A stretch of DNA of 64,000 nt from the IMG/VR virus record IMGVR_UViG_3300031994_000039, positions 48,507 to 112,506 of that record; one strand, written 5' to 3'. Position 1 is the stretch's first letter; every line of letters starts with the position of its first letter. Below are positions 465 through 24,100 of this stretch, in pieces. This DNA comes from a virus (lineage: Duplodnaviria > Caudoviricetes). A program made the translations under genes and the position numbers. The notes under the pieces are model-generated. The model was not told the DNA's origin. It worked only from the letters and a program-made list of their open reading frames with translations, and searched no databases.

Positions 465-470
465 CAATAA

Positions 471-542
471 CAAGAGCCCCAGGAATCGAACCCAGTCTAT
501 CTGTCTTGACAACAGATGTGCTATCCTTTACACTATGCTCTT
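471..542 (-). tRNA. atypical tRNA, nominal anticodon UCA (G33)
   Basis: AAGAGCA-TA-GTGT AAAGGATA GCAC-A-TCTGT TGTCAAG ACAGA-TAGA-CTGGG TTCGATT CCTGG-GGCTCTT-G. Confidence 0.65.
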
Positions 543-724
543 GAAGCATATACTATGTGTGGTCAACAACATGGTAGTGAAAACCCGGCATTAAAGGGGA
601 TGCCGGGGAAACTTTAAATGGAGGTTTGAAAGTATGCACAACACCGAAATTTAATATGCTTTTGAAAAGGAGAGTAACTTATGAATAAAAATACCACCAC
701 ACATAGCCTTATATTAGATAATGA

Positions 725-796: not shown

Positions 797-866
797 ATAC
801 ATAAGCCGCCGACCACTTCCAAAACCGGCGACTTAGAAACCCTTTGTACACATGGCACACGGGCGA

Positions 867-924
867 TTCCGGACCGGGGCCTCGAACCCCGATGACCTCC
901 CGGCTTACCATTGCCTGCCCGGAA
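867..924 (-). ncRNA. 58-nt mini-tRNA with no anticodon arm
   Basis: TTCCGGGC/GTCCGGAA acceptor, D-arm GGC-AATGGTAA-GCC, 10-nt linker, T-arm CGGGG-TTCGAGG-CCCCG. Confidence 0.6.
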
Positions 925-1251
925 CTCAGTCACGTTTTATTTTTATGTCGAGTCAGAACTGAGACACTCGACAATTACGAATCGTTTATTGGCACACTGT
1001 ATATTTAGATATACATTAATAGAAATACTGTCAAGTTGTTTATAATTCCCACAGTTATGTGGATCAAACAGTATAATTTTTTCAAACACTGACTGAAGAA
1101 CTTTTAAATATTTTTGTTTTGCGATCAAACAGAAATTTTAAAACAAAATTCGGTGATCAAGTTTTCGCGTTACTTTCGCTGACAGCAAAAGCATGTTATA
1201 GTCAACATCATTTCTTCTATCAATCAGTCCCGCGTCTACTGCTGAACGATA

Positions 1252-1452: not shown

Positions 1453-1644
1453 GCTTACCTTACTCCTTTGAATTATTGTTTTAACCAGACTTTTAAAGTT
1501 TCCCTAACCTTCAGAAACTTTAAAACATTATTAACAAATACCTCTGCTTATCTTCCGGTAACACCAAAAGAATATCCTGCCGGATATGTCTTAATGCTGC
1601 GGCAAAACATATCTTACATGATATCATCTCTCTGGTCGCTTACG

Positions 1645-2954: not shown

Positions 2955-3228
2955 GATAATTTCTCTCCTTCCTGAATGCAGCGTAGTCATTTTCCCATTG
3001 CTGCCGGATCATTTTCTTTCGCTTCGCTGTATCTCTTTCCATCTTTTCTCTCTGTTCTTTTCTGTTGTCAAGTATTACCCACACGCAAACAATTACGAAC
3101 ATGGATATATAAATTGTTTTAAAAATAATAGAGCAAACTATATTTAAACTAGGTGTGGTTGCATCTGTTATCATAAACGCTGTTGATAAGATAATTCCAA
3201 ATATCCCAGAATAACCTTTCATTTTCAC
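2947..3228 (-). CDS. small membrane protein (2 predicted TM helices)
   Basis: Two hydrophobic stretches followed by a basic tail. Confidence 0.6.
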   Translation of the reverse strand: MKMKGYSGIFGIILSTAFMITDATTPSLNIVCSIIFKTIYISMFVIVCVWVILDNRKEQREKMERDTAKRKKMIRQQWENDYAAFRKERNYHG

Positions 3229-3749
3229 ATTACCTCTTGTTTTGTTTTTACTTCATAATTTTTGCATTTTCTCTTTAACTTAAATGGTTCTTCATCACGT
3301 CTAAGAACAAAGCGTCTGTCGCTAAATCGTTTTGCGCGTTCCTGCCCTTTAAGGAATATACACTCGTGATGCATACCAATCTCTGTCCTATCAGTCTTAT
3401 AATATTTACAGGTGAGACATTTGTATTGCTTGCAGAGTTCCTTATATTCAGCGTCGCACTCATCTTTAAAGCTACGCTCTACCATTTCCTTAGTCCATTC
3501 CGGAAGTATAAGCCATCTCCAGACTGGTAAGCCGTTGTAGATATCCTGAGTAAACCGTTCATAAACATCCTCTTTCGTCAGACACTCAAAGTAGTCAGTC
3601 GCAAACCTAAATGATTCAAGATATGCCGAAATTTCCTCGTAGTTAATTTCATACTGACCGCCGATCTCTGTGTCTGCAAAAATCCTAAGGATATCAACAA
3701 TAGCAGAGCAAGCCATTGCCTGTTTTGGGTTCATCATATTCCTCCTCAA
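3225..3749 (-). CDS. hypothetical Cys-rich protein directly downstream of RT
   Basis: 174 aa, CxxC (CLTC) plus further Cys/His; candidate RT partner by position only. Confidence 0.65.
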   Translation of the reverse strand: MRRNMMNPKQAMACSAIVDILRIFADTEIGGQYEINYEEISAYLESFRFATDYFECLTKEDVYERFTQDIYNGLPVWRWLILPEWTKEMVERSFKDECDAEYKELCKQYKCLTCKYYKTDRTEIGMHHECIFLKGQERAKRFSDRRFVLRRDEEPFKLKRKCKNYEVKTKQEVM

Positions 3750-3767
3750 GCCATGAATGGTATCACC

Positions 3768-4934
3768 TTATAAAGTTTTCAAGTCATTCTTAATTGACTC
3801 AGCTATATTCAAGCCGACCTTCTGACTCATCTTGTCAACTATTTTCTGAATGGCTTCCTTTTCGACCATCGAGAAGTAATTACGATACCCTTCGAGCACT
3901 TGAATGTCATTCAACGACCAGTCCTTTCCGTTCTTTTTGTCCATGCCGTATGAATACAACATTGCGGTGAACTTTTTCTTGTTCTTATATCCGACTGTAA
4001 TCTGATTGTCCTTATTAAGCATTACGCCAAGATTCCAGTTTGAACCTGCAGAAGAACCATACCTTGTCTTCTTTCTATTAAGCTCGAACGGAGCTCCGAA
4101 TTCCTGAAGAACCTTTACTATTTCGTCCTCAATCATCTTGTAACTGAAGTCTATCTTACATGATATGATGAAGTCATCCGCATATCTTGTATACACAAAC
4201 TTCCTGTTATCATAATCCCTGAACATATTAAACAGCTTGTAGTCAATTGGGATCATCATGATGTTTGTTATTAGTGGGCTGATCGGAGTTCCTTGAGGAA
4301 GCCCGCCGTTTAAGAACGCAAGGCTGATTGCCTGCTCGAAATATTTCTTTCCTTCCGGAACCGCAAGAACTCTGGAAAACGGAAAAATCATACTGAACAT
4401 CTTTGTCACGAATTCCGGAGTTGTGCTTCCAAAGAAGTTATGAAGGTCGAACTTTGCAAACCACTTACTTTCATTACCCTGATGTCTCTTTACTGCATCC
4501 AGTGTGCTTCTGCCTTTTATATATGCAAATGCTGATGTATGATACATCGCACCAAATCCATCCTCGAAGATGAACTTAAGTTCCCGAAGCGCCTCCATAA
4601 GTCTCGGCTTAGGTGCATCGATTCTACGAAGGCCGCCGGATCTCTTCGGAATGTGGAATGATCTATAAAGTTCCGCTCTATCCACTTCAAAGAGATCCTT
4701 GTACTTCTCGTTAAAGCACCACAATTCATTAATGAGTGACTGAATATTCAAACTGCCGAATATCTTTTCAGCATTTCTGGATAAGTATGTTCGTGTGTTT
4801 GTATTCCTGCCGTCCTTGCGTGTATAGTTTTTATATCTTTCGTTCCATTCATTATCTGGTAACGAAAAGAAATCGTCCAGAGATAGCTGAACTGTTTTCT
4901 TATTAAGAACAACTACTACATACTCATTGTACAT
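3768..4934 (-). CDS. retron-type reverse transcriptase (388 aa)
   Basis: Start MYNEY at 4934 behind AGGAGG; motifs IPKRSGGLRRIDAP, AFAY, DAVKRH (NAxxH-like retron region X), FDLHNFFGS, GLPQGTPISP, YTRYADD, WNLGV (region Y, VTG-like); no fused maturase or nuclease domain. Confidence 0.92.
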   Translation of the reverse strand: MYNEYVVVVLNKKTVQLSLDDFFSLPDNEWNERYKNYTRKDGRNTNTRTYLSRNAEKIFGSLNIQSLINELWCFNEKYKDLFEVDRAELYRSFHIPKRSGGLRRIDAPKPRLMEALRELKFIFEDGFGAMYHTSAFAYIKGRSTLDAVKRHQGNESKWFAKFDLHNFFGSTTPEFVTKMFSMIFPFSRVLAVPEGKKYFEQAISLAFLNGGLPQGTPISPLITNIMMIPIDYKLFNMFRDYDNRKFVYTRYADDFIISCKIDFSYKMIEDEIVKVLQEFGAPFELNRKKTRYGSSAGSNWNLGVMLNKDNQITVGYKNKKKFTAMLYSYGMDKKNGKDWSLNDIQVLEGYRNYFSMVEKEAIQKIVDKMSQKVGLNIAESIKNDLKTL

Positions 4935-4953
4935 AGAGTTTCCTCCTTTCAAA

Positions 4954-5145
4954 TTAATTGTCAACCTCCACGACAATCTTATTATTGTCCAGAGAGAAGA
5001 AGACCACGGCGTGATCGAGGAAATCCTCAACCCGCTGTGGACTTTCGTTCTTTGTGCTTTCAATTATAACTTCCTGACTGCCTGCAGAAACCAGTGTGAA
5101 GTCTATGCTCAGTGCAGCCTTACTGTAAAAATCCCCAAATTTCAT
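4954..5145 (-). CDS. hypothetical 63-aa protein immediately upstream of RT
   Basis: ORF with GAGG RBS, co-directional. Confidence 0.6.
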   Translation of the reverse strand: MKFGDFYSKAALSIDFTLVSAGSQEVIIESTKNESPQRVEDFLDHAVVFFSLDNNKIVVEVDN

Positions 5146-5166
5146 TTTTCCTAGTCCTCTTTATTT

Positions 5167-6078
5167 TTAGCAATTAACCGTCGTAAATTCTTTCGTGTCT
5201 TTATTGAAGAAGAATATCTCTCCAGAAAGAGTATCCGCTGGTCCGAATATTCTATTTGTTTCCGTTACATTACGCTTAATGCTCGTCGGATCGATGCTTC
5301 CAACCTTGTGAACCATAGCCTCGTGTATACTTGTGAACGCTACGTAGAAGCTATCGCCGTACATTTCTGCAAGCTTTTCCTTAACTCCCGGACAGAACAT
5401 TGCGATCGCTCCGTTTGTTTTCCTGCTGGTTGTGACGAGCGTGACTCTGTTGTTACTAAGTCTTTCCTTGCTTTCGAGAACTTTCTTTCCGCTTCCGTCA
5501 GTTATGTTAAACATGTCTGTGTAGAACATTGGAACCTGATTCTTTACTGTGTTCTCCATTGCAGCCGCGAAGATATCCAAATCCTTCATACCTGTCTGCT
5601 TCTTATATCCTTCGACACATCTCATCGGAACCTTTATTGTGTTCAAGATTCCGTCGCAGTCACTCATAATAAGGTAAAGAACCAGCGCAATATCACCCTT
5701 CTTGCAGTACATGCAAGGTTCTTTTGCATTCTTCTGGATAAATTCCGCACTATAATTCACAGGTCTGATGATTAATTCGTCCTTAATCTTAGTGTAGTCT
5801 TCTATTCTGTCGATCTTATTCATGAATCCACCAGCCCTTTTTCTGATGCTTGTCAAAGCCTCGCCAGTTGCCCTAAGGACAATGTCCCATCCTCTTTCGT
5901 TTACTGACTTCTGTGTATCTGCCAGTCTTACTGCCATTGATACCTCATCGCCGTTCAGTTTTATTCTTGCAACCTCTACATCATTTACACATTCAACGAG
6001 GAATTCCTCATTTGCCTGGATAAGATTGTATTCTTCCATTTTTTCTTTTAATACCTTTGCAAATTCTTTGTTAGTCAT
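5167..6078 (-). CDS. DUF5688-like protein
   Basis: Start MTNKEF behind GGAGG; motifs LIIRPVN, GDIALV, VTTSRKTNGAIAMF, FTSIHEAMV, LSGEIFFF resemble this Firmicutes family. Confidence 0.65.
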   Translation of the reverse strand: MTNKEFAKVLKEKMEEYNLIQANEEFLVECVNDVEVARIKLNGDEVSMAVRLADTQKSVNERGWDIVLRATGEALTSIRKRAGGFMNKIDRIEDYTKIKDELIIRPVNYSAEFIQKNAKEPCMYCKKGDIALVLYLIMSDCDGILNTIKVPMRCVEGYKKQTGMKDLDIFAAAMENTVKNQVPMFYTDMFNITDGSGKKVLESKERLSNNRVTLVTTSRKTNGAIAMFCPGVKEKLAEMYGDSFYVAFTSIHEAMVHKVGSIDPTSIKRNVTETNRIFGPADTLSGEIFFFNKDTKEFTTVNC

Positions 6079-6118
6079 AATCAAAACCTCCAAGTTTAAT
6101 TATCTTACTACCATTGTT

Positions 6119-6398
6119 CGTGTAACCTGATTACCTTTCAGGATCTCAGGGCAGCGGGCGCTGGTGCCACCGGCGCGCGTCAAAGCGATCTTTTATTTGT
6201 TCCTTTGCGGAACAAAAGAACGAAGGTCCACGTATTTGCGTGCTTCCTGAGATCTGTTTCTCTAATCAGGGCGGCTCCAGATCCGGAGATGGCGACTTGA
6301 GTTGTCGCCTCTCCTCCTCCTTCGCCTTATCATGTCGAGCCTTTTAATTACATCAAAAGGTTATTTCATATTGGATATAAAATAATATGCGTTACACA
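6119..6398 (-). ncRNA. retron-like msr-msd ncRNA, copy 1
   Basis: Ends UGUGUAAC(G)...GUUACACG (a1/a2); candidate branch G at 6390; msr stem-loops; msd (+ strand 6126-6270) stems CCTGATTA/TAATCAGG and GATCTCAGG/CCTGAGATC enclosing 3 hairpins. Confidence 0.8.
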
Positions 6399-6436
6399 TT
6401 TTCATGTATTAATAAAAGATAGCGTGATACATAAAT

Positions 6437-6511
6437 TACATAAACAATACCGCCGCAAAAATCCCGCAAACCACGTAGCTATCAGGTTTGCGGGGGATAG
6501 TTTTTTCCAAC
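6437..6511 (-). promoter_or_regulatory. candidate phage-RNAP promoter element (copy A) upstream of ncRNA 1
   Basis: Ungapped match to 25003-25077: GTTGGAAAwAACTA, central hairpin with TAnnTRCGTG, TTTATGTA at identical offsets. Confidence 0.5.
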
Positions 6512-6551
6512 TTTCTTGCGGAGTTATGTTTTATTACGTTTTGTCGCTCGC

Positions 6552-7214
6552 TTAAAAAGCGTCGATTTCAAAGCTCTTCAGATCAACTAAAACCATCTTC
6601 TTAATTCCTTCGCCCTTTACGAAGTGTATGAAGTTGGTTACTGCGATTGACGATACCACTCTAACAACAGGGCACACGCCCAGTGTAATGCCGCAAGCTG
6701 ATGTGGGAGTTTCTGCCTTCGCTTCTTCATGGCTGAACTGCATTGTAGCCAGAAGATTTTCCCTCATGCTTTTATCTGACCAGTCAGCAGCGTAATGCTG
6801 TGCGTGCTCTAACAAAGTTCTTATGTCGAACACTGCTTTAACCATCGGATTAAGCATATGTTTTTCACAGATTTCTCTGCGGATCTCGATACTGTCTACG
6901 CAAAGGAAGACATATCCTGCAAGAGTTTCACCGTTCCAACCCTTCTTTGTTTTGATCTCGATGTCCGGATTGATGTTCTGGAGAATACCCTTGAGAGCTT
7001 CTGTCTTTTCCTTGCCGACATCTTCTTTCGTGAACATCTGGTTCACGATATTATGTTCCTCTACCTTATCAAAATCCCAGAGAACCATTGACTTTACGCC
7101 ACAGCGGGCGAGGTTTTCTGCGATTGTTGAACCGACAGATCCACATCCGATGATGTGGATGTTGCCGTTTACATTGCTTGGGTTGAAGTATTCGAGTGAT
7201 TTTGATAAATTCAT
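6552..7214 (-). CDS. ThiF/E1-like ubiquitin-like activating enzyme
   Basis: IIGCGSVGS nucleotide-binding loop, DFDKVEEHNIVNQ, CVDS, DIR, candidate catalytic Cys in TSACG; start MNLSK at 7214. Confidence 0.88.
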   Translation of the reverse strand: MNLSKSLEYFNPSNVNGNIHIIGCGSVGSTIAENLARCGVKSMVLWDFDKVEEHNIVNQMFTKEDVGKEKTEALKGILQNINPDIEIKTKKGWNGETLAGYVFLCVDSIEIRREICEKHMLNPMVKAVFDIRTLLEHAQHYAADWSDKSMRENLLATMQFSHEEAKAETPTSACGITLGVCPVVRVVSSIAVTNFIHFVKGEGIKKMVLVDLKSFEIDAF

Positions 7215-7215
7215 A

Positions 7216-7827
7216 TTAACACGCCTCCACAAATAATTCTTCAAGGTTCACCTTTTCTTCTTCAGGTTCTTCTTTGATCTGGACTTCCGTTGTACAGTAC
7301 TCTTCAAATGCCTTCATGAGTTCTTCGGCAAATTCACTTTCCTGTTCTTCTGTAAGAGCTGGTGTCTCAGGTTCAGGTTCCTCTTCCGGAATCTCATAAT
7401 TGTCAACAATTTCATGGATGATGTCCATTATATCTGTTGCTGCTTCCCCTTCTGCGGCAGGTTCTTCTTCCTCCTCAGGGTCATCCTCTTCTTCGGGTTC
7501 ATCTTCCCATTCCTGGTTGTTGTCCATATATGATTTGAGATCGTCTTTATAATCATTGAACTGCCCGTCGTTGTCGTCTGTTCCTCTCCACGTTCCGTCG
7601 TAGTCGTCGTGTATATATCTGTCATACCTGTCACTTGGTATATCATCAACCAAGCTTCTTAAATCTGACAGAGAGTCGCAGTACTTTGCGTCATCGAGAA
7701 TTCTGCTTTCAAATTCGCCGTGCGTATATAAACCGCCTGTGAAAACATCATTAAAATAATCATAATCCCTTGCGCATTGTTCCAGTTCATCATAGGTGGT
7801 GATATCTTCAAACTCTGTTCGTGTCAT
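7216..7827 (-). CDS. highly acidic protein
   Basis: 203 aa, very D/E-rich (DEPEEEDDPEEEEEP), inside the E1/JAB cluster. Confidence 0.75.
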   Translation of the reverse strand: MTRTEFEDITTYDELEQCARDYDYFNDVFTGGLYTHGEFESRILDDAKYCDSLSDLRSLVDDIPSDRYDRYIHDDYDGTWRGTDDNDGQFNDYKDDLKSYMDNNQEWEDEPEEEDDPEEEEEPAAEGEAATDIMDIIHEIVDNYEIPEEEPEPETPALTEEQESEFAEELMKAFEEYCTTEVQIKEEPEEEKVNLEELFVEAC

Positions 7828-7846
7828 ATTTCAGACCCTCCTTACC

Positions 7847-8656
7847 TTACCATCCGCAACCAAATCTTTCGCTCAGCCACGCTTCGTATTCCTCATCTGT
7901 CATGCCAGCGTAGTAGTCACTATATTTTGATTTCTTACCGCCTTTGCCTTTGCCGATAGTCTTTGTGTCGGCTAAGGTACCCTTCAGATTGTAAATCTGT
8001 GTACCTGTGTATCTTGGGAAGTATTCATCAACCACGAGTTCCTTCGCTTTTTCTGCGAACTCCAGGATTTCCTCTTCGACATCGACGAATACCGTAACAT
8101 CATTGTCTTCATAGACTGTGTTACTCTGTTTATCGTAAATGTTTACGTATACGTCTCCTTTTTTATTTGTAACCAAGAAGATATAGAAGTCGTCGTCTCT
8201 GAGCTGATCAACGATTCCTCCGTAATAGGTTTCGTCTACGCTTGAAGGAGTTACGCCCATGTTTACATGGCTGTGCCCCTGCATTCTTAAGTTCTGAAAA
8301 ACCTCGTCTGGCTGTTCGTAGAGCCACATCTGATACTTTTCCTGATCCGTAGTGACAGTTGAACCTGTTACCTTCTGCGGGTAAACTACTATGTCGTCGA
8401 TGACATAATCGCCGTCCTTTACCTTTCTGGCGATGCCGTGCCATGCAACCTCTTTATCAAACTTATCAACCAGTGCTCTCATTTTCTTATCGGCAAGCTG
8501 ACTGATTTCCAGTGAAGCTTTTTTGCCGGTATTCAGTGTGAGTTTCTTGCTGTAGTTGACTGTGTTATTCTTGAAGACTCCGGCTGCGAGAAATTTTAAA
8601 AATTCCTCACGGATCTTTTCAATTTCTGTCTGATCTATATTAAATGCACGACTCAT
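7847..8656 (-). CDS. JAB/JAMM (MPN+) metallopeptidase, deubiquitinase-like
   Basis: Full JAMM motif: E in DKEVAWHG and H-S-H-x7-S-x2-D (HSHVNMGVTPSSVD); start MSRAF at 8656. Confidence 0.88.
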   Translation of the reverse strand: MSRAFNIDQTEIEKIREEFLKFLAAGVFKNNTVNYSKKLTLNTGKKASLEISQLADKKMRALVDKFDKEVAWHGIARKVKDGDYVIDDIVVYPQKVTGSTVTTDQEKYQMWLYEQPDEVFQNLRMQGHSHVNMGVTPSSVDETYYGGIVDQLRDDDFYIFLVTNKKGDVYVNIYDKQSNTVYEDNDVTVFVDVEEEILEFAEKAKELVVDEYFPRYTGTQIYNLKGTLADTKTIGKGKGGKKSKYSDYYAGMTDEEYEAWLSERFGCGW

Positions 8657-8660
8657 ATGA

Positions 8661-10064
8661 TTAACCTTCCTTTCTAAGTTCCTCAAGAACTTCATTGAGT
8701 GTGTAGCTGTTTCCGTTTAATTCAAAAGCTCTCTTGTTTGTTCTTGTTATGCGAGTTGTAAACTCTTCCATAACGGTGCTGTCTGCGAAGTTCAATGAAC
8801 GAACTGACATTCCGCAGAGACTGAGACACTGGATTGTATCGCCCGCCTTGAGCGCATCGACCATCATCATTTCATAGTCACCTAAACAGTGGTAACGGTC
8901 GATATGTGTATTCGGGAAGTAATCCTGAACTTCTGGAATGTAGCTTGCGTCTGCTATTCCAGTCACTCTGAACTCGCTTATCTTTATTCTGTAAGCTGCA
9001 ACACTCTTGAGCTTCACACTATGTTCTACGAAGATCGCATTGAAGAGTTTTTCTGTGTCCTCTCTGCTGATGTTTGAATAATCGTAAATAATACTATCGT
9101 AATTATCTACAAATTCCTCAGCTGTATCCGAATCAAATACATCAAGATATCCAGTAGCAAAAAACTCGATTGAGTCGCCGCTGCATGAATTGAATACGAG
9201 ATTTTTATTTGCCTTGAAGAAGTCGAGAATTTCGTTACTTTCATTCTTCACAACATTTCTTAATCCATCAATAATGATGTTCTTATCTCTTATCTTTATG
9301 AGCAGATTCGAAATTTCCTCACGCTTCATAGCTATCGTCTGTTCCAGTGATGAGATTTCGTTCTTGTGATATTCTAACTTATTCTTTGCAAAGCGAGTCT
9401 CAATTCCTGAAAGTGCTGCTTCCATTTTCCTTTCCCGGATGCCCTTGATAGCTGCGATGTTTGCGATTGCCTTTAAGAAAGGTTCTACGTTAGTCTTGCT
9501 GAGAGTTTCAAGGAACTCTGTTTCCTCTTTGGTGATAGGCTTTTCCTTGAAGAACCACGGCAGATATACCGGAGTTCCCATTAATACATAACGTTCTGTT
9601 TCAAGAGACATATTTTCTATCGGCTTATAGATTACGATTGTCCGCTTGCCGCATGTGAAACATGTTACCTCAGTTCTGCTAAAGAACTTTCTAACCTTCG
9701 CAGTTTCAACCCATTCCGGGCTCTTTTCCTTAACTCCCTCGCTGAGTTCGTCAAACCACTTTGTATCCGATCTCTTTACAGATATCAGCCATAAATCCTC
9801 ATCACACTTTTCTGTGTCGAATGTGAGTAATCTGTTGTGTAATTCATCGTATGATGAATCATACATGCCAGCGTTTCTGGTTATTTCGTTATACCTGATT
9901 TTGAATGGCGCGTCGTCTTCGACCCTGTCGATTAATAACGCTCTTACAACCATATTGAATACTACGTCTGTACTATAATTCCATTCGATCTTATAGATCT
10001 TCTTATCATCTTCGTCTTCGTTGTAACTGAAGGCAGTTGATGCTGGGATTCTTCCGTTGAACAT
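8661..10064 (-). CDS. coiled-coil protein with putative C-terminal E2/UBC-like domain
   Basis: Central heptad coiled coil; C-terminal FPNTHIDRYHCLGDY resembles the prokaryotic E2 PxxH...CLG active site; lies between Ubl and JAB. Confidence 0.6.
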   Translation of the reverse strand: MFNGRIPASTAFSYNEDEDDKKIYKIEWNYSTDVVFNMVVRALLIDRVEDDAPFKIRYNEITRNAGMYDSSYDELHNRLLTFDTEKCDEDLWLISVKRSDTKWFDELSEGVKEKSPEWVETAKVRKFFSRTEVTCFTCGKRTIVIYKPIENMSLETERYVLMGTPVYLPWFFKEKPITKEETEFLETLSKTNVEPFLKAIANIAAIKGIRERKMEAALSGIETRFAKNKLEYHKNEISSLEQTIAMKREEISNLLIKIRDKNIIIDGLRNVVKNESNEILDFFKANKNLVFNSCSGDSIEFFATGYLDVFDSDTAEEFVDNYDSIIYDYSNISREDTEKLFNAIFVEHSVKLKSVAAYRIKISEFRVTGIADASYIPEVQDYFPNTHIDRYHCLGDYEMMMVDALKAGDTIQCLSLCGMSVRSLNFADSTVMEEFTTRITRTNKRAFELNGNSYTLNEVLEELRKEG

Positions 10065-10124
10065 TTAAAAATTCCTCCTTAGAAAGATTGGCGGGGTGTT
10101 GTGTTCCCCGCCTTTTGGTTTTGG

Positions 10125-10437
10125 TTTGTGTAACCTAATTAGAAGTTGATCCTGATGAAGGATGAGTTCTGGGCTACTCAACCAGGTGAACTTCTATTAC
10201 GATGACCTTTTTCCTGATCTGCGGGCTGCGCAATCTTGGGGCTTCCTGAACATATTTCTGCTTGGATGTTGATTGAGCTTTTAATTTTTTTTTTTAGTAT
10301 GTTTTAATCAGATAAAACAGTACCCAGCTCGTGTCCAGATACCTCCTTCCGGCGGAGGTGCCTCCTTTCCCTTAACAATGCGATCCATTCACTGACAGTA
10401 AATGGTTGTTTTAAAAAAACAAAATGCGTTACACAAA
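10125..10437 (-). ncRNA. retron-like msr-msd ncRNA, copy 2
   Basis: 10-bp a1/a2 TTTGTGTAAC/GTTACACAAA; candidate branch G at 10427; same msr layout as copy 1; msd stem TAGAAGTT/AACTTCTA enclosing 2 hairpins. Confidence 0.8.
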
Positions 10438-10466: not shown

Positions 10467-10694
10467 TTAAGCGTTGTCTGCTTTAACCACCTGTAAGAGG
10501 TAGCATTTATCAGTAACGCCGTAGTCTGCAAAGGTCTTATTGAAATCCGCACTGCCTACGACGCTGCCGTTGAGTGTGATTCCGCCTGCGGCAACATTGA
10601 GATTTGCCTGTTCTGCGGCTTCGAGAATTGTAGTGCTTGGGTCAAGAACTAATTCTGTTTTATTGAGTGATGTTCCGCTTATTACCTTAATCAT
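10467..10694 (-). CDS. ubiquitin-like (beta-grasp) protein B, 75 aa
   Basis: KTFADYGV resembles ubiquitin RTLSDYNI; ends VVKADNA; AGGAGG RBS. Confidence 0.8.
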   Translation of the reverse strand: MIKVISGTSLNKTELVLDPSTTILEAAEQANLNVAAGGITLNGSVVGSADFNKTFADYGVTDKCYLLQVVKADNA

Positions 10695-10778: not shown

Positions 10779-11159
10779 TCACATAATTGTGATGCTATCC
10801 ATTGCTGTGCTGAGTGCGTTCTTGGCAGCTTCGATCTTTTCCGGAGCAGTTGCCTCGAATGCGTTCATTTTAGCAAGAGCCTTGCCATACTTTTCAGCAA
10901 TGAACCCCTTGATCTTATCCGGTTCAAGATCGCCGACAGAAACTGAAGTGCTTGCGTAGCCGCTTGCATCAGTCTTATCGAAGGTGATTCCGTATGTTCC
11001 GATTGAGCCTGTGGTTCCTGTTGCAACCTTAAAATCAATTTCCTTTTCCTCGTTCTTAACGACGAGTGCTTCAGGTGTTACTGTTGCAAGTGTTTCGAGA
11101 TCTGCTGTGAGAATTGTGCTTGTGAAAACTGCGATGCCTGAGATTACTGTTACCTTCAT
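10779..11159 (-). CDS. 126-aa hypothetical protein, paralog B
   Basis: Tandem paralog of 11245-11625 (shared GTYGITFDKTDASG, KYGKA). Confidence 0.85.
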   Translation of the reverse strand: MKVTVISGIAVFTSTILTADLETLATVTPEALVVKNEEKEIDFKVATGTTGSIGTYGITFDKTDASGYASTSVSVGDLEPDKIKGFIAEKYGKALAKMNAFEATAPEKIEAAKNALSTAMDSITIM

Positions 11160-11244: not shown

Positions 11245-11625
11245 TTACATAATTGTGATGTTGTTCATTGCTGTTTCAAGAGCTGACTTAGCAAGTGCGA
11301 TACGCTCTGGTGCAACCTCTTCAAAAGAGTTCATCTTTGCGATTGCCTTGCCATATTTAGTGGCAATGAATTCCTTCACCTTGTCTGCCGGAATGTTACC
11401 GATTTCAACAGATGTTGAAGCGAAGCCGCTTGCGTCTGTCTTGTCGAAGGTGATTCCGTAGGTACCAACTGAGCCCTTTGAGCCTGTGTCAACCACAAAC
11501 TCAATTTCTTTTTCTTCGTTCTTGGCGATGAGCACTTCCGGAGTTACCTTCTTGAGTGTTTCCAGATCAGACATGAGAACTGCACTTGTGAAAACCGCGA
11601 TTCCGCTGATTACAGTAATTTTCAT
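11245..11625 (-). CDS. 126-aa hypothetical protein, paralog A
   Basis: Tandem paralog of 10779-11159; AGGAGG RBS. Confidence 0.85.
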   Translation of the reverse strand: MKITVISGIAVFTSAVLMSDLETLKKVTPEVLIAKNEEKEIEFVVDTGSKGSVGTYGITFDKTDASGFASTSVEIGNIPADKVKEFIATKYGKAIAKMNSFEEVAPERIALAKSALETAMNNITIM

Positions 11626-16424: not shown

Positions 16425-17756
16425 TTATCTGATAACAATTGCGCCTTTATGACTATTTGCAAACATCCACGTAGCATATGAAATATTTTCCAGTTTGCCG
16501 TAGTGCTCGAAAATAGGCGGGTTTAAATAGTCTGTTGACTTGTGAAGATTGACTTTGTATTCATTAGCTACTATGCTAATATCAGCACCTGTAAACTCTG
16601 CGTCACTCTGTGGGTCAACGTGTATCGGAATGTTACTCATTTCTGACAGCTTGTTTGCAGTTTCAGTATCGTATGAACCGCGTGAAATAGGGCTTGAATC
16701 CTTTTCGTTCCAGGAATTGGCAAGTATCTCGTGGGCACTTGCATTGTTAAAGTCAAGTACATTTTTCAGTGATTCAATGCTTAAAGCCTTATTACGGATA
16801 CGCTTTAAAGCACTTTTTACAGTTTCTTGACTCATTTTTAAACTTTTAGCAATGACTTTGTATCCGGCAAACGGCATTTTAAGTCTAAATGCGAGCACTT
16901 TTGTTTCTGATTCCGACAGCTTAAGGTCGGCTGTCGATACTCTGAGTCTGTTTTCGTCCTCTAACGTATCAATATTATACACGAGTCGCTGATAGATTTT
17001 AGTGCCTTCTGTCGCATTATCTAACTCAATATAGCTGTAGCGCCCGTCGTAAGACTTGAAGCTGTCGTAAGAAGCGATGTTCTGTCTGATTTTGTGGAAT
17101 ATTTCACGAAGAACAGACGTCTCAACTTCACGATATGTTGCAACAGTGTCTAGTGTGTCAGATATTACGACCTGTTTTGTTGGTTTATTTACCATGATTT
17201 TACGGGTTAACCAATATCTATGACAAATATTCGGAGTTTTGAGCAGTTCAAACTGGAATTTATTCTCAGTTTTCATAGCGCTCCAAAGTTCAATAAATGC
17301 CGTGTTTACGTGATCTGAAGCGCTTCCACTCCATGGATTTTTGATACAGTCATAATACATTTCACGTACCTTTTCGTTGTCCGGTGTTACGTCAAGCATG
17401 CGTCTAAGTACACAGAGTACCATAGCAGGACTTAAAGCTCTAAAAGTCGACTCACACGGATTCTTTTCAGCGTCACTTACAAGGTCGGAAAATACGTGTT
17501 TTTCAGCACTTTCAGCCTTCCATGATTCAATGATTATCATGAAATTTTTCCATGATTCAGTTGACAGAATGTCTACCGGAACGTCAAAATGTTTATCGTC
17601 TTTCCAGTTGATGTTTAAAGGCTTGAAAGTCACGTTTTCACGGGCTTTTAAAGCGTTTTTACGGTTCAGCATTTCTTGACGTTCTGTGAATGTCATGCCG
17701 GAAAATGTGTTGTTTGCGTCGTTTGTGGTTGCGGTTGTGTTTGCGTACTTTTTCAT
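16425..17756 (-). CDS. large protein with sigma-70 region 4/LuxR-like HTH (putative phage transcription regulator)
   Basis: LSESETKVLAFRL...YKVIAKSLKMSQETVKSALKRIRNK; start MKKYA behind AGGAGG. Confidence 0.65.
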   Translation of the reverse strand: MKKYANTTATTNDANNTFSGMTFTERQEMLNRKNALKARENVTFKPLNINWKDDKHFDVPVDILSTESWKNFMIIIESWKAESAEKHVFSDLVSDAEKNPCESTFRALSPAMVLCVLRRMLDVTPDNEKVREMYYDCIKNPWSGSASDHVNTAFIELWSAMKTENKFQFELLKTPNICHRYWLTRKIMVNKPTKQVVISDTLDTVATYREVETSVLREIFHKIRQNIASYDSFKSYDGRYSYIELDNATEGTKIYQRLVYNIDTLEDENRLRVSTADLKLSESETKVLAFRLKMPFAGYKVIAKSLKMSQETVKSALKRIRNKALSIESLKNVLDFNNASAHEILANSWNEKDSSPISRGSYDTETANKLSEMSNIPIHVDPQSDAEFTGADISIVANEYKVNLHKSTDYLNPPIFEHYGKLENISYATWMFANSHKGAIVIR

Positions 17757-17846
17757 AAAAATCATCCTCCTAAGATGTTGTGTCACTTTTTGTGACAAGG
17801 TTTAAAAGTTTATGATATAGAGAAAATTTCTTTTCTCTATGGTTTT

Positions 17847-17875
17847 ATTATACGCCTAAATACGTGGTTTGTCAA
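17847..17875 (-). promoter_or_regulatory. consensus sigmaA promoter (leftward)
   Basis: TTGACA-17 bp-TATAAT; spacer contains the AACCACGTATTTA motif. Confidence 0.85.
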
Positions 17876-18216
17876 GTGTTTTTTTAAAATCTGATACAAA
17901 ATTATTCTATTTCCGATTTTCTCACTTGTGGATATAGGTTTTAGTATTACCGAAGGCAGACCGGACAACCGGAAGACAGGTCACTTCTCCTCCCAAGCCT
18001 CACCTCCAAATCCTCTAACCCCATCCACCCCCGCAAATAAGCGATTTACCGATATCGATTTTTTCTCTGACCCGGAAAATGACGAGTAGAAATTTTTTAC
18101 GAGTGTTAATTCTGACTGGATCGTGTCCATACCCACCAGTATCCAAAATAGTGAGCATATGTAGATTAACTTAACAAATCATCTATACCCGAAAACTTAA
18201 ACTCTTAAAAGACTAC

Positions 18217-18245
18217 TTGACGGAATAGAATAAATATGATATAAT
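18217..18245 (+). promoter_or_regulatory. sigmaA promoter (rightward)
   Basis: TTGACG-17 bp-TATAAT with extended -10 TG. Confidence 0.8.
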
Positions 18246-18329
18246 ATAAGTAGAATATTAAAAGTTGTTTATCCAGAGAAGAAACCTACCCGGTTTCCTT
18301 ACTGGACAAGATAAATGAGGAGGATGCAG

Positions 18330-18581
18330 ATGAGTGATTTAATATTTGGATTCTATTTTAAAGAACCAGGTAAGAACCCAGTAGCCGGAATGGTAGGCCC
18401 TTACGAACTGGCTAAGCAAATACTCATAGACCTGACCGAAGAATCTCCGACTGGAACCAAAGGATATATCATAGACCAGTACAATGAAAAGTACGAAGGT
18501 TTTGAAATGTGCGAAGAAAACGATCCTAGGTTACTCGAACAGAAAGCGAGAAACAAGAAAAGGAATAAGGGAAAGAAATAA
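18330..18581 (+). CDS. hypothetical protein
   Basis: AGGAGG RBS before MSDLIF. Confidence 0.7.
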   Translation: MSDLIFGFYFKEPGKNPVAGMVGPYELAKQILIDLTEESPTGTKGYIIDQYNEKYEGFEMCEENDPRLLEQKARNKKRNKGKK

Positions 18582-18830
18582 ACCACGCAGTTTCGAGCTT
18601 GCGAGGCACTATCATGTTTTGCCTCGCAAAATAATTTTTAACTGGCGTATCTACGTCGATTGAGGGGTACTCCCCTTTAAAATATTTAACATAGGAAAAC
18701 AGGTAGGCATAACCCACGTATCTATGGGTTTGCGAGGCGGTCCTTGCATTTGCCTCGCAAATCTTCTCACAACCCACGTATTTTCCTCGTTTGGACAGTA
18801 TTCCCCTTTAAATATATTTATATAGGAAAT
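18581..18830. repeat. ~130-bp imperfect direct repeat x2 with hairpins; candidate replication origin
   Basis: Both copies contain AACC(C)ACG..TTGCGAGGC...GCCTCGCAAA and CCCCTTTAAA(A/T)..ATATTTA..ATAGGAAA; non-coding, upstream of the helicase-like gene. Confidence 0.6.
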
Positions 18831-18973
18831 ATCCAAATCGAATGACATAGGTATCCAGTATCCTGCAAGTGTAACTTTCCCGGCGGGAGTGAAGCTGCAA
18901 AAAAATCGCAATGTAGGATTTTTGCAAAAAAGTACTCAAATTGCAGAGATTTTTTCTTTAAGGAGATGTATTT

Positions 18974-19372
18974 ATGTACACAATAGTAATAAAACAAAAA
19001 GGTAGAGTTACCACTGAAGAGGTGAGCTCTCTCAAAAAAGCTAAGGATAAAATAGTAGAACTTGAGTCCAATTTCGAGTCCTCCCTAATGGCTGTTGTTC
19101 TGGATAAAGATTTTAATATGGTAATGTATAAAAACAAGGATGCGTGGGATAACGCATTTAAACCTGCGTCGGAAGCAAAAGAATGGAAGAATTTCAAACC
19201 TAGATCCTGTAGACATTGCGGATCCAAAGGAATTTTACGATACGCTAATTTTGGGCAGTGGGCAGGGTATAAATTCAGGGTTGAGTGTGAGAATCCTGAA
19301 TGCACCGGGGATCCGCCACGGTTTGCTGTCAGTCCAGAAGAAGCCATTGAAATTTGGAATTACAATCTATAG
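18974..19372 (+). CDS. Lar-family (restriction alleviation-like) Zn-finger protein
   Basis: CRHCG...VECENPEC...EEAIEIWN C-terminal signature. Confidence 0.7.
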   Translation: MYTIVIKQKGRVTTEEVSSLKKAKDKIVELESNFESSLMAVVLDKDFNMVMYKNKDAWDNAFKPASEAKEWKNFKPRSCRHCGSKGILRYANFGQWAGYKFRVECENPECTGDPPRFAVSPEEAIEIWNYNL

Positions 19373-19384
19373 GGTGGTGAGGGA

Positions 19385-20782
19385 ATGATTTATATATGTG
19401 ATGCGATAATGGGTAGTGGCAAGACTTCTGCTGCCATAAATTACCTGAAAGCTCACAGGGCCGACAAAACGATATATGTCACTCCTTTTCTGGATGAAGT
19501 TGACAGGATCCTGACTCAGTGCCACGGCATCGCCCTTCATACTCCTTCAGCTGCAACTGCCAAAAGAGAATGTGGTGAATATGCAAAACGCAAAGACTTT
19601 GAACGTTTGGTCCGTCAGGGCAAAAGTGTGGTGACTACCCACTCCCTGTTCCGGGAGCTGGCTCCTGAGATTACAGATGTTATTAAGGAGCAGGGGTATA
19701 CACTTATAGTAGACGAAAACCTTGAGGAGATACAGATGAGCGGAGACAGTGAAGAAGAGACGGATACCGTCAACGGGTTCACTATTTCGGATATAGCTGT
19801 ATTTGTTCGTGCTGGAGATTTAATTGAAACCATTGATTACTCAAGTGAGTCTGTTGAGATAGCAACGTACAGAAGAAGTGAGGCTGCTAAGGATTTGAGC
19901 GCAGACGGGAAATTTAGTGAGTTTTATAAACAGGTAGACGAAAGGATACTCAGGGCGTATATCTTTAAAAGTGATGGCAAAAGAACCGGAGCCTCATTCT
20001 ACTGGATGGTCCGCCCGGAACTCTTCACAGTATTTAAAGACGTAATTGTCATGACCTACAGATTTGAGGGGCAGGGATTGTACAACATCTTTAAATTATT
20101 TGAACTGGAGTATCAGTATATATCAATTAACAAAACTCAGAAAGGTTTCTTTTTCGACTTCTCCGGAGGGGTTAGTAAGTACATACCAGACTACACGAAG
20201 CATATATATAATATGATTCATATACTGGATGATGAAGCTCTTAACGAGATAGGTAATGAGGAAAATGCATTATCGGTTAGCTGGTTTATCCGTGAGGATG
20301 GAAAGGCTACAGAGGGCAAAGGAGATAAGATAAAGAAATTAAAGAACAATATAGGTAACTGTTACAGGCATAAGTGGCCAGAATCAAGCGGTGGTGCAGG
20401 TTCTATTTCTGGAAAACATTTAAATGAGAAGAGACTTTGGTCTACCTATAAGATGTTCCAGGAGAAGTTGGCGGGTGCGGGATACTCGCAGAATTTCCTC
20501 TCCTTTAATACAAAGGCAACTAACGATTACCGAAATGCAGAGTATCTGGTTTATGCAGTGAATCTGTATTACTTCCTTCCGGTAAAGTTTATGTATAATG
20601 CTCTGGGGATAGAGATAAACGACGAACTTTACGCTCTGTCTACGATGATTCAGTGGATCTGGCGTTCAGCTATAAGAGACGGTAAGCCAGTGTACTTATA
20701 CCTGCCGAGCAGCCGTATGAGAAGAATACTTATTAACTGGATGAATGAGATATCGGGAGGGGTGAAGAAAATAGATGTTTAA
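19385..20782 (+). CDS. SF2 helicase-like / origin-binding protein
   Basis: Walker A DAIMGSGKT, TTHSLF, Walker B LIVDE, C-terminal QWIWRSAIRDG. Confidence 0.75.
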   Translation: MIYICDAIMGSGKTSAAINYLKAHRADKTIYVTPFLDEVDRILTQCHGIALHTPSAATAKRECGEYAKRKDFERLVRQGKSVVTTHSLFRELAPEITDVIKEQGYTLIVDENLEEIQMSGDSEEETDTVNGFTISDIAVFVRAGDLIETIDYSSESVEIATYRRSEAAKDLSADGKFSEFYKQVDERILRAYIFKSDGKRTGASFYWMVRPELFTVFKDVIVMTYRFEGQGLYNIFKLFELEYQYISINKTQKGFFFDFSGGVSKYIPDYTKHIYNMIHILDDEALNEIGNEENALSVSWFIREDGKATEGKGDKIKKLKNNIGNCYRHKWPESSGGAGSISGKHLNEKRLWSTYKMFQEKLAGAGYSQNFLSFNTKATNDYRNAEYLVYAVNLYYFLPVKFMYNALGIEINDELYALSTMIQWIWRSAIRDGKPVYLYLPSSRMRRILINWMNEISGGVKKIDV

Positions 20783-21100: not shown

Positions 21101-24100
21101 GTGGTTACTATTAGCAAGCAGTTGACATGTCAGAAGTACATTCTGAAGATTAACAGCTCAAGGCTTCGCAGAGAGAAGTGGAATCTTAACGTCTCACTTG
21201 ACGAAGCCAGGAACAATGACGAGATCATCTCACTGGCGGACAGTCAGATGCTCAGGTGGATCGACGAGCTGAATGGAGTAACGGACGCTGACAGAAAGGC
21301 AAAGTCAATCAAAAAGCAGATAAGGGAACTGCGTAAGTGCGAACCGTCTTTACAAATACGCCGTGAAATGCGCAGGCTCTATTCTGATCTGGATGCACTT
21401 CAGTTTAAACCGGACTATCTTTGTTTAATTATAGACAAAGGTAAAGATTATCTGCGAGCAGTAAAGGGATTTAAAGTAAACGGAATAAAGTATAAACGTT
21501 TGCTTGGAACTACTGGTGGTATTAAGAACTCCACCATAGTGTTTGTCTCGGAAAGGCTCTCGGACGAGCTGCACAGGCGTATCAACAACGGTAGGGATAT
21601 GACCAAGGCTATGGTGCCCGCCAAGCTGAATGCATACATGGCGCTGACCTGTAGTGCTTCAGTTCCGGTATCACTACCGAAAGGGATCCTGGTTGTGGAT
21701 GATGTAGAGACTGAGTTCCTCTCAGATATCATTTATCTCTCCAGTCAGGATGAGGGCGAACCGGTGATGGAATACAAGAAGGATTATCTTATGAAGCTTG
21801 ATGCCACTGACGGCTTCGGACTGATGCTTCCCTCTCTGGCACAGAGGTGGAGTGAGGAGATAGGTCTTGACTATACGGCAAGCGGTATGTGCTGTAGGTA
21901 CAGCTTTACTAAGGGTATGGTTTTTACGTTTGACTTTCTGGACTTTGCTGATAAGGTCGCAGGCGGCAAATATCTTGTCAAGGACGTATGGGGCAACGAG
22001 GTGGATATCAGGAATGTAGAACTGATACTGACCACATCTATGTTAAAGTTATGGGACAGCTATCCAAGCTGTGAGGAGTTTATCAGATTATCTGAGGAGA
22101 ATCACTATACATTCGCTATAACCAAAGCGTGCCCGGAGGTACTTGAGGATGAACGATGTTTAAACTATCAGTTTGTACAGCCATTTAACCTCGATGAGGA
22201 TGATATACAGGAACTTATCTCCCCTACCCTTAACGAGATATGGGATGTGCTGCAAGGCGACTGGCGGCGTGCTCTCGTATTCCTCAGAGGCGTAGGTATG
22301 ACGGAAGAAAACATTGGCCGCTCAGCTGATGATATCGCTAAGGCTATAATGGCGGACCAGAGAGTGTTCGATGATCCATATGTCCAGAATAGTATTTATC
22401 AGCTTATCAGGAACAGAATTAACGCTGCGAAGATAGGCGTGCTCAAGGTTCACGCAAATTATTCGATTGTATCTGGAGATCCATATATTCTGTGCCAGAA
22501 AGTATTTGGTCTGGAGGAAACCGGATTACTTAAGGCCGGGGAGATATATAATCAGTATTGGGCTGATAACAGCTCTGATGAAGTAGTGTGCTTCAGAGCC
22601 CCGATGTCTTGTCATGAAAATATAAGGAAAATGAAAGTTTGTAAGTCCGATGAGGTTCGGTACTGGTATCAGTATATGAAGACCTGCACAATACTTAATG
22701 CGTGGGATGAAACAATGCCCTCATTAAATGGATTAGACTTCGACGGAGATCTCACGTTTATAACAGATAACGAAGTTCTACTCCGCAGACATGAAAAGCT
22801 TCCGGCTATTGTTTGTATCCAGAAGAAGGCAGAAAAGAAAATAGCTTCGGAAGAAGACTTCGTTGTATCTGATATGAATGCTTTCGGTAATGATATTGGC
22901 AGTATTACAAACAGAACTACTTCAATGTATGAGGTTAGGTATAACTATGAAAAAGGAAGCAGAGAATATGAAGAGCTTACATACCGCATAAGGTGTGGTC
23001 AGCTCCTACAACAGGATTATCAATTATCGACTAGTCCGCTTGTACAGAAATGTGCTTGAAAAACGACTCATTGAATTGCTGGAATCCCTTAAAGCTTACA
23101 GTGCTACAACGGAGGAGCGAACAGTTCCAAACGTGAATGCGGCGAAAGCAGAAAGAAACTGTAAGATGGTATATGGTTAAATCCTAAGTATTAAGCAATA
23201 GGCAATCTAGCAGCTAAGTTCCGAACAGGAGAAAGTTCAACGACTAACTCTTATGAGTGTAGGGATACAAGCTATTGGTATTTCGAAGTGGTGGGCATCC
23301 TTAGGGATGATGATATAGTCTTCTCTCAGTCGAAATGGCTGAGGACGAAAGTCGGCAAGGAGTAGCGTCCTATTATAACTTAAATAGTTTAGCCAAAAGG
23401 AAAGGGCAATTGATAAAGCAAAGGGTATTATATCTCTTCCGGCTCCGAGAGAGTGGTACGATCGTCATGCGGTAGCTAAGATCGAAGATGATGAGAAGCG
23501 TGATTTCTACCGCACGATCATCGCAGACAAAAAGCCAATGTTCATGACCTACATCTACCCTTCTCTGGCGAGAGATTATAAGGACTTTCTATCCAGTACA
23601 AACAAGAACGCGTTGAGAGAGTTTGGTATGACAGTAGGAGAACTTAAAGAAAAGAGATATGATGAACTCACACCGAGACAGATTGAGTTCCTGCATTATT
23701 ACGATAAGATGATGCCGGTTGGCTTAAATGACTGTGTAATGAACAGAATCTGCAGAATCTTCGAGAGAGAGTTTGATGACTTCATCAAGAACAAGTCCGG
23801 TACAAATGCTGAATTTGATCCGGAGATCCTGAAGAGTGGCATAACTTATACTGACAAGGATTATAAGGCCGTTAGGAATCTGCATAATGATTATCTTAAC
23901 AGACTCAAGAATTATAAAACCAGAGCGTGCTATGAGCGTGTTGATGGTGATGAATTCAATGAACAGCTCGACAGAATCAAAGCTGAGTTTGAGGAAGAAT
24001 GTGACAAGGTTTGTCCGTGTAGAAGAACACTCACAGACATCCTTATTGATATTTGTTATTCAAACGCATCCACCAAGAGATATATCTGGAGCTCATGCGG

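Follow-up and report, generated by a model that had tools for sequence, protein, structure and literature searches.

The window analysed here is the right-hand 64 kb of a 112.5-kb virus genome in IMG/VR (IMGVR_UViG_3300031994_000039), rated 95% complete and apparently belonging to a large gut phage of lytic type. It encodes a retron-type reverse transcriptase (RT) together with several noncoding RNAs (ncRNAs) of the msr–msd type, which are dispersed around the RT gene. Followed along the minus strand, in order of decreasing coordinates, the gene block comprises a ubiquitin-like protein (Ubl), ncRNA B, a 467-aa gene, a JAB peptidase, a 203-aa gene, a ThiF/E1 enzyme, ncRNA A, a DUF5688 protein, a 63-aa open reading frame (ORF), and the RT.

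NcRNA A (6119–6398, minus strand) and ncRNA B (10125–10437, minus strand) occupy two gaps for which an earlier note, made from the sequence alone, had claimed a single layout, and both sequences read as claimed. Copy A begins with the repeat a1 (GUGUAAC, 6397–6391), followed by a candidate branching G (G6390), two stem-loops (SL1, 6385–6375/6371–6361; SL2, 6360–6352/6348–6340), a linker, and a third stem-loop (SL3); it ends with AAUCAG (6132–6127) and the repeat a2 (GUUACAC, 6126–6120), which leaves G6127 as the candidate first template base. Copy B has a1 at 10434–10428, the candidate branching G at 10427, then SL1, SL2, linker, and SL3, and at its 3′ end AAUUAG (10140–10135) and a2 (10134–10128), with G10135 as the candidate first template base. 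In both copies a1 and the invariant G lead into a pair of covarying stem-loops and a linker rich in purines; a template region unrelated between the copies follows, then an AG motif and a2. This resemblance is far beyond chance. The a1/a2 pair closes the molecule in both predicted folds, SL1 and SL2 form, and each fold beats every dinucleotide shuffle (z −6.5 for A and −3.1 for B). The R2 model scores copy A at 66 bits (E 2e-12) and copy B at 83 bits (E 3e-16).

RT-seeded searches collected 85 viral loci and 7 contigs from metagenome-assembled genomes (MAGs) assigned to Clostridia. With A and B as its sole input, a covariance model detects 45 matches, spread over 43 loci, and the model rebuilt from those 45 finds 165 matches in 90 loci; in both rounds all matches lie on the RT strand, and they are linked to the RT, usually three to each. 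Across 118 distinct sequences the two stems are 96% paired, 16 of 16 pairs change on both sides, and the covariation score is 0.79, against 0.22 for shuffled sequences and about 0.09 with partners slid, counts somewhat biased in favour of the model, since the alignment had been fitted to it. What had been noticed between A and B, that the stems differ in sequence yet keep pairing, holds across the family. The frequent G–U pairs in these stems are compatible only with the RT-sense strand. Searched against Rfam release 15, the ncRNAs match no family at the gathering score or at E ≤ 5.

The junctions of the two repeats are conserved as well. The G that lies 3′ of a1 is invariant in 107 of 107 scored copies (114 of the 115 letters in that column of alignment A6), and in most of these copies a2 is clearly complementary to a1, the pairing starting right next to this G; the median distance to a2 is 278 nt downstream. 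Between 8 and 14 complementary bases are found in the 107 members kept, with a mean of 10.4 compared to 7.8 for shuffled a1. The base before a2 is G in 101/107 copies, inside an AUGUAG-like motif. To judge from these sequences, the geometry of the invariant G and the a2 junction is that of retron priming.

Several ncRNA copies per RT are the rule in more than 170 related loci, all of them within about 10 kb of the RT. Three copies are present in 23 of the 20-kb loci, two in 12, four in 4, and one in 4, and in the usual arrangement a single copy precedes the RT and two follow it closely; related loci, L176 included, have two to six ncRNAs per RT. One subgroup, with 46% RT identity, is missed by the model, and its own seed gives three copies with a1 GUUUGUGUU and a2 AACACAAAC. 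The anatomy of the RNAs, their covariation, strand bias, copy number, and linkage are all established by computation.

A profile search of the phage's own genome returned four matches (A, B, C, and E), all on the minus strand. NcRNA E is a full copy just outside the window (genome positions 47548 to 47285, minus strand), matched by the profile and predicted to fold closed by a1/a2; its a1 is UUUGUAAU, followed by the G, and UAG stands before its a2, AUUACAAA. SL1 is replaced in E by three small hairpins, and the msd forms a long hairpin (z −3.4). Compared with L176, the closest relative with DNA (RT 79%), E shows a compensatory swap from U–A to C–G at the a1/a2 junction. Element C (1015–1224, minus strand) carries the SL1–SL2 handle and the GUAAC linker (R2 30.5 bits, E 2e-4) and is conserved in L176 with compensatory changes in SL2. 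Its 10-bp a1/a2-like pair is not conserved in L176, and C is therefore not counted as a proven template; it is a handle-bearing RNA of uncertain template status. Element D (about 1470–1613, minus strand), found by the covariance model only (R2 19.9 bits, E 0.047), has the GCAU motif, SL1, SL2, and a perfect 12-bp hairpin, shows no clear a1/a2, and is conserved in L176. Both C and D lie downstream of the RT. Because a1/a2 is not conserved in C and is missing from D, we count three full ncRNAs (A, B, and E) and two handle-only elements (C and D); with at least three full copies in the genome, the earlier figure of exactly two was too low.

L176 has elements at the sites of B, A, D, C, and E, and a further full copy directly after its RT. 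When the window is aligned with L176, the handles are frozen, the msd regions have diverged, and the changes in SL2 are compensatory; copy A, for example, keeps its handle and 3′ end around a diverged msd. The site of copy B is also occupied in L004, L006, and L007.

Several further features were observed around these RNAs. A GC-rich hairpin followed by A/U-rich sequence lies at the end of element C (946–973, minus strand), and after it comes a GC-rich, tRNA-like stretch (830–940, minus strand) that is called by neither ARAGORN nor Rfam. A P-loop kinase-like gene follows ncRNA E, from about genome position 47230 downwards on the minus strand, just outside the window. The region of L176 that matches the flank of E (16521–20441) has genes for a Thg1-like protein and for an AAA_33/Metallophos/T4 RNA-ligase fusion; together these look like an RNA or tRNA repair set beside the retron RNAs. 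The relative L003 has a tRNA-Leu(UAA) gene at the site of copy B (3733–3818), and its ncRNAs flank the RT on both sides. A variant ncRNA class with a shortened 5′ motif (UGUAGAUU) and an enlarged SL1 with UACAUAA is conserved in several other relatives (L008 15340–15570, L043 15440, L048 12640, L050 13620, and L005 17440) and resembles the expanded handle of copy E.

The template (msd) regions behave very differently from the handle. The 107 msd regions fall into 88 unrelated clusters. In pairs of close phages, identity is 98% for the msr and 83% for the msd, where indels are numerous; for the RT gene of these pairs it is 96% over the whole gene and 90% counting third codon positions only. Set against the third codon positions, the msd evolves at least as fast as synonymous sites, next to a nearly frozen handle. 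The substitution spectrum of the msd shows no adenine bias. Its template strand is A+C-rich (C 0.27, compared to 0.20 genome-wide), so the cDNA would be G+T-rich.

The earlier note had further proposed branched hairpins for the variable regions, formed on the cDNA strand. Copy B is branched, and A and E have long hairpins; family-wide the proposal is only weakly supported, with a mean z of −1.6 for the cDNA strand and −1.1 for the sense strand after shuffle controls with DNA parameters, a small but significant excess. A large folding advantage of the cDNA strand was discarded, as it reflects mostly base composition and these controls leave only the small asymmetry. No second copy of any msd is present in the 112-kb genome. 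Neither was a significant match found in 301 genomes sampled from the order of a Lachnospiraceae MAG with a related contig (one match of 26 nt is not significant), a null that neither supports nor refutes targeting. A decoy for restriction enzymes or GATC-binding was also set aside, the terminal ATGTAG being the only enriched motif in the msd set.

The RT gene (3768–4934, minus strand) encodes 388 aa with an intact YADD box, an N-terminal extension of about 75 aa, and a match to Pfam RVT_1. It starts at the ATG at 4934, preceded by AAAGGAGG, rather than at 5063 as had been thought. All 25 RT matches listed by PADLOC are to retron RT models, the best being RT_II-A (2e-46), and in NCBIfam the match to retron_St85_RT (2e-50) compares with 5e-25 for group II maturases. 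An RT family profile searched against the PDB finds Ec83, Ec78, the St85 family, and Ec67 at 6e-28 to 2e-20, and down to 4e-15 when Kva2 is included, with the group II RTs lower at 1e-12. The best profile and PDB matches are all retron RTs, outscoring group II RTs by at least 15 orders of magnitude. The RYADD catalytic box is invariant in the RT alignment (A2). Proven retron RTs are its nearest matches in all three resources. Given these matches, the conserved YADD, and two altered signature regions described below, its sequence identifies it as a divergent member of the retron clade. Its family comprises 4,749 clusters at E ≤ 1e-10 and carries no name in public sources.

We consider it likely that the locus is a phage retron in which one RT serves several dispersed msr–msd RNAs, each giving a different multicopy single-stranded DNA (msDNA). 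Such a phage-borne, multi-template retron was the central suggestion of the earlier note, and the sequence-level tests favour it: an RT nearest to those of retrons, the a1/a2 repeats, the invariant G, a covarying msr, a fast-changing msd, and multiple copies. From these sequences we infer branching, cDNA synthesis, and a biological role. The RT would most likely recognise the shared 5′ handle formed by SL1, SL2, and the GUAAC...GAUAAGG linker. The a1/a2 duplex would set the invariant G beside the first template base, the G just 5′ of a2, and the RT would prime from the 2′-OH of the invariant G. The A+C-rich msd would then be copied into a G+T-rich single-stranded DNA beginning 5′-C-T-A/G, and from each RNA a distinct msDNA, at most about 200 nt long, would result. 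All these template features are present in copies A, B, and E; C and D keep the handle only. With several cognate RNAs around a single RT gene, each infected cell would be expected to make a series of different DNAs. The combination of a frozen handle and a fast-changing msd suggests that the msDNA sequence is either unconstrained or under diversifying selection. If unconstrained, abundant single-stranded DNA or hairpins could serve as a decoy or scaffold; if diversifying, there may be an arms race over the msDNA sequence.

Several observations weigh against a multi-template retron. The RT scores 172 bits, below the 235-bit curated cutoff of NCBIfam for retron_St85_RT. Region X, with its NAxxH motif, is altered (LDAVKRHQ in the window, LDNAKIHQ in Ec83, and RDNAAAHAG in Ec78), so that the His is retained and the Asn-Ala lost. 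The VTG motif of region Y is altered as well, with NWNLGVMLN where Ec78 and Ec83 have NRHVTGVT, and the Gly alone is retained. A scan for promoters and terminators did no better than on shuffled sequences, and neither a −10 box nor a T-run recurs at a fixed position beside the RNAs. Copies A and B have an identical 7-nt a1/a2 core, and cross-pairing between them is therefore possible. Many msd regions are only modestly structured and differ from the simple long hairpin of classic retrons. Finally, a gene order conserved within one phage family may stem from common ancestry and not from function.

With its altered NAxxH and VTG motifs the RT may prime differently, and C and D keep the handle without a conserved a1/a2. 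Both facts would suit RNAs that bind the RT but are mostly not copied constitutively, acting instead as regulators, RT sponges, or conditional templates, with one copy or none giving abundant msDNA. A type VI retron reportedly makes little msDNA before infection and uses conditional templates (10.1101/2025.10.22.683967). The G conserved in 107/107 copies, the a1–a2 pairing beside it in most of them, and the G before a2 in 101/107 count against this alternative, since selection for such an arrangement is hard to explain without priming and templating, and we regard it as unlikely.

The position of the copies among tRNA genes, and the tRNA-Leu that stands at the site of copy B in L003, could also point to structured RNA or DNA elements unrelated to the RT, be they transcript-processing signals or insulators, tRNA-like elements, or mobile elements, terminal inverted repeats being typical of miniature transposons as well. 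However, no copy lies more than about 10 kb from the RT or on the opposite strand, the internal 60-nt RNA structure covaries using G–U pairs, and Rfam returns no match even at E 5. The inverted repeats vary between copies with compensatory changes and the rest of the element is unrelated from copy to copy, the opposite of what transposon copies show; the miniature-transposon reading was rejected, and an element of any other kind unrelated to the RT seems improbable. Least credible of all is that the msd acts as a donor for targeted change in phage or host, through mutagenic retrohoming like that of diversity-generating retroelements (DGRs) or natural recombineering: the msd is hypervariable at strain level and retron single-stranded DNA can recombine in engineered systems (10.1101/2023.07.17.549397), but the genome holds no second msd copy, the substitutions lack an adenine bias, the 301 sampled genomes gave no significant match, and the RT is not DGR-like.

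The multi-template retron of this phage shares with canonical retrons (its nearest RTs are those of Ec83 and Ec78, type I-A, and the St85 family) a retron-clade RT with YADD, the a1/a2 repeats, a G immediately 3′ of a1, the msr stem-loops, a variable msd, and a template start beside a2. In the classification of Mestre et al. 2020, retrons of types I–XIII reportedly have one ncRNA adjoining the RT and an accessory effector of a described type. The phage system differs in having several ncRNAs for each RT, scattered both upstream and downstream of it across about 12 kb, in its AVKRH and NLG in place of NAxxH and VTG, in an extra N-terminal segment, in templates of about 150–230 nt that are often branched, and in being carried by a large phage. 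A cassette of Ubl, E2-like, JAB, and E1 proteins takes the place of an effector of the 13 described types.

Multitrons are said to use ncRNAs with a common msr and differing msd and a1/a2; similarly, the outer a1/a2 bases differ between copies in most of the related phages. These engineered retron arrays, in which one retron RT works with several ncRNAs (10.1101/2023.07.17.549397), are man-made editing tools, whereas the phage arrangement occurs in nature, with conservation across hundreds of phage contigs. As in phage DGRs, a phage RT is paired with a quickly changing RNA template; unlike in DGRs, there is no template/variable repeat pair, changes are not adenine-specific, and the RT is of another class. 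A published catalogue covers retron-like RT clades of viruses but not their RNAs (PMC13681634). The retron literature searched describes one template RNA per RT and treats retrons as bacterial defence systems, and full-text searches found no description of a natural retron with several ncRNAs, the engineered array being the nearest. The phages described here, at least 270 viral contigs with thousands of RT clusters, form a large gut-phage family that keeps one RT with several templates, a natural counterpart of those arrays. The handle, the invariant G, and the AG–a2 junction are defined well enough to design a co-expression test, and the naturally orthogonal a1/a2 pairs and long templates could serve multiplexed DNA production in cells.

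The conserved block as a whole runs Ubl, E2-like protein, JAB, E1, ncRNA, RT, and further ncRNAs, and the retron makes up its downstream half. The order Ubl–p467–JAB–E1–RT, where p467 is the 467-aa protein, is found in all 87 loci with room upstream and also in MT835544 (RT 41% identical), and the RT is present in 80/80 loci fetched with E1 (ThiF) as the seed. Gene content further out is not conserved. PADLOC detects no known retron effector near the RT, the cassette standing there instead.

The Ubl (10467–10694, minus strand; 75 aa from an internal Met; alignment A8) has a modelled beta-grasp topology, and Foldseek matches the model to ubiquitin, NEDD8, and a bacterial Ubl at a probability of 1.00 and a TM score of about 0.6. 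It ends in an invariant Asn-Ala (DNA or NNA), beyond which some relatives have short tails. The p467 protein (8661–10064, minus strand) is predicted to consist of an N-terminal domain, a long coiled coil, and a C-terminal RWD/UBC-like domain (pLDDT 83). For residues 271–424 the top matches from VIA-align are chains of the SEA complex, Knl1/KMN, and the RQC complex (Ltn1/listerin), with Z 6.3–7.5; we read these chains as RWD domains, which is suggestive only. Given these matches and the invariant His387 and Cys393 (alignment A7), the modelled C-terminal domain is probably E2-like. No family was found for p467 in Pfam, PHROG, PADLOC, NCBIfam, PDB sequences, Foldseek, or the Atlas. The JAB/JAMM-type peptidase (7847–8695, minus strand; PADLOC JAB 7e-5) has an intact HSHx7SxxD motif in its translation and is conserved in 86 loci. 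The ThiF/E1-type adenylyltransferase (6552–7244, minus strand) matches Pfam ThiF (2e-25) and the E1–E2 models of PADLOC.

Ubiquitin-like conjugation systems of bacteria include the Bil and Bub operons and CBASS Cap2/Cap3. The phage cassette has the same set of components, namely a beta-grasp Ubl, a ThiF-family E1, a JAB peptidase, and a probable E2-like Cys protein. It differs in having Asn-Ala, not Gly, at the end of the Ubl and an E2-like protein of 467 aa with a coiled coil, and in being phage-borne and always followed by the retron RT and ncRNAs. This constant pairing suggests a joint function, in which RT–msDNA complexes might act with, or be regulated by, the conjugation enzymes during infection, and it raises the testable question of how a phage uses reverse-transcribed DNA together with protein tagging. 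Tentatively, retron and cassette could even be one machine, with RT–msDNA complexes as specificity or sensor modules, scaffolds, or substrates of phage Ubl conjugation, although we would not favour this at present. Were it true, reverse-transcribed DNA would direct or gate protein tagging during infection, which would give retrons a novel effector logic and put ubiquitin-like conjugation to a new use.

The remaining genes of the block are less widely shared. The DUF5688 protein (5167–6093, minus strand; 308 aa; Pfam PF18941, 8e-25) is inserted between ncRNA A and the RT; it occurs in the contigs of P0005 and P0006 and was not found by tblastn in 90 other loci. Between it and the RT lies the 63-aa ORF (4954–5145, minus strand), with a 62-aa gene at the equivalent place in L176. 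Both genes are restricted to the closest relatives. The 203-aa protein (7216–7827, minus strand) belongs to no family and has no tblastn match in 90 loci; L176 has a gene of similar size (205 aa) at its position. Megablast of the region against deposited phages gave no match, and the only deposited record with a close RT is the uncultured MT835544 mentioned above.

Upstream of the Ubl are two paralogous 126-aa genes (10779–11159 and 11245–11625, minus strand). The corresponding part of L176 (2346–4311) has three such 126-aa paralogues and a second 75-aa gene (3091–3318) of the same size as the Ubl of L176. Elsewhere in the window, Rfam detects three group I catalytic introns that attain the gathering score (23008–23343, 28739–28996, and 37045–37369, plus strand), which suggests that phage genes are split by introns. 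ARAGORN also reports a tRNA with the anticodon UCA, labelled SeC, between tRNA-Gln and tRNA-Met (470–543, minus strand); it may be a UGA suppressor, a hint of stop-codon recoding in part of the phage.

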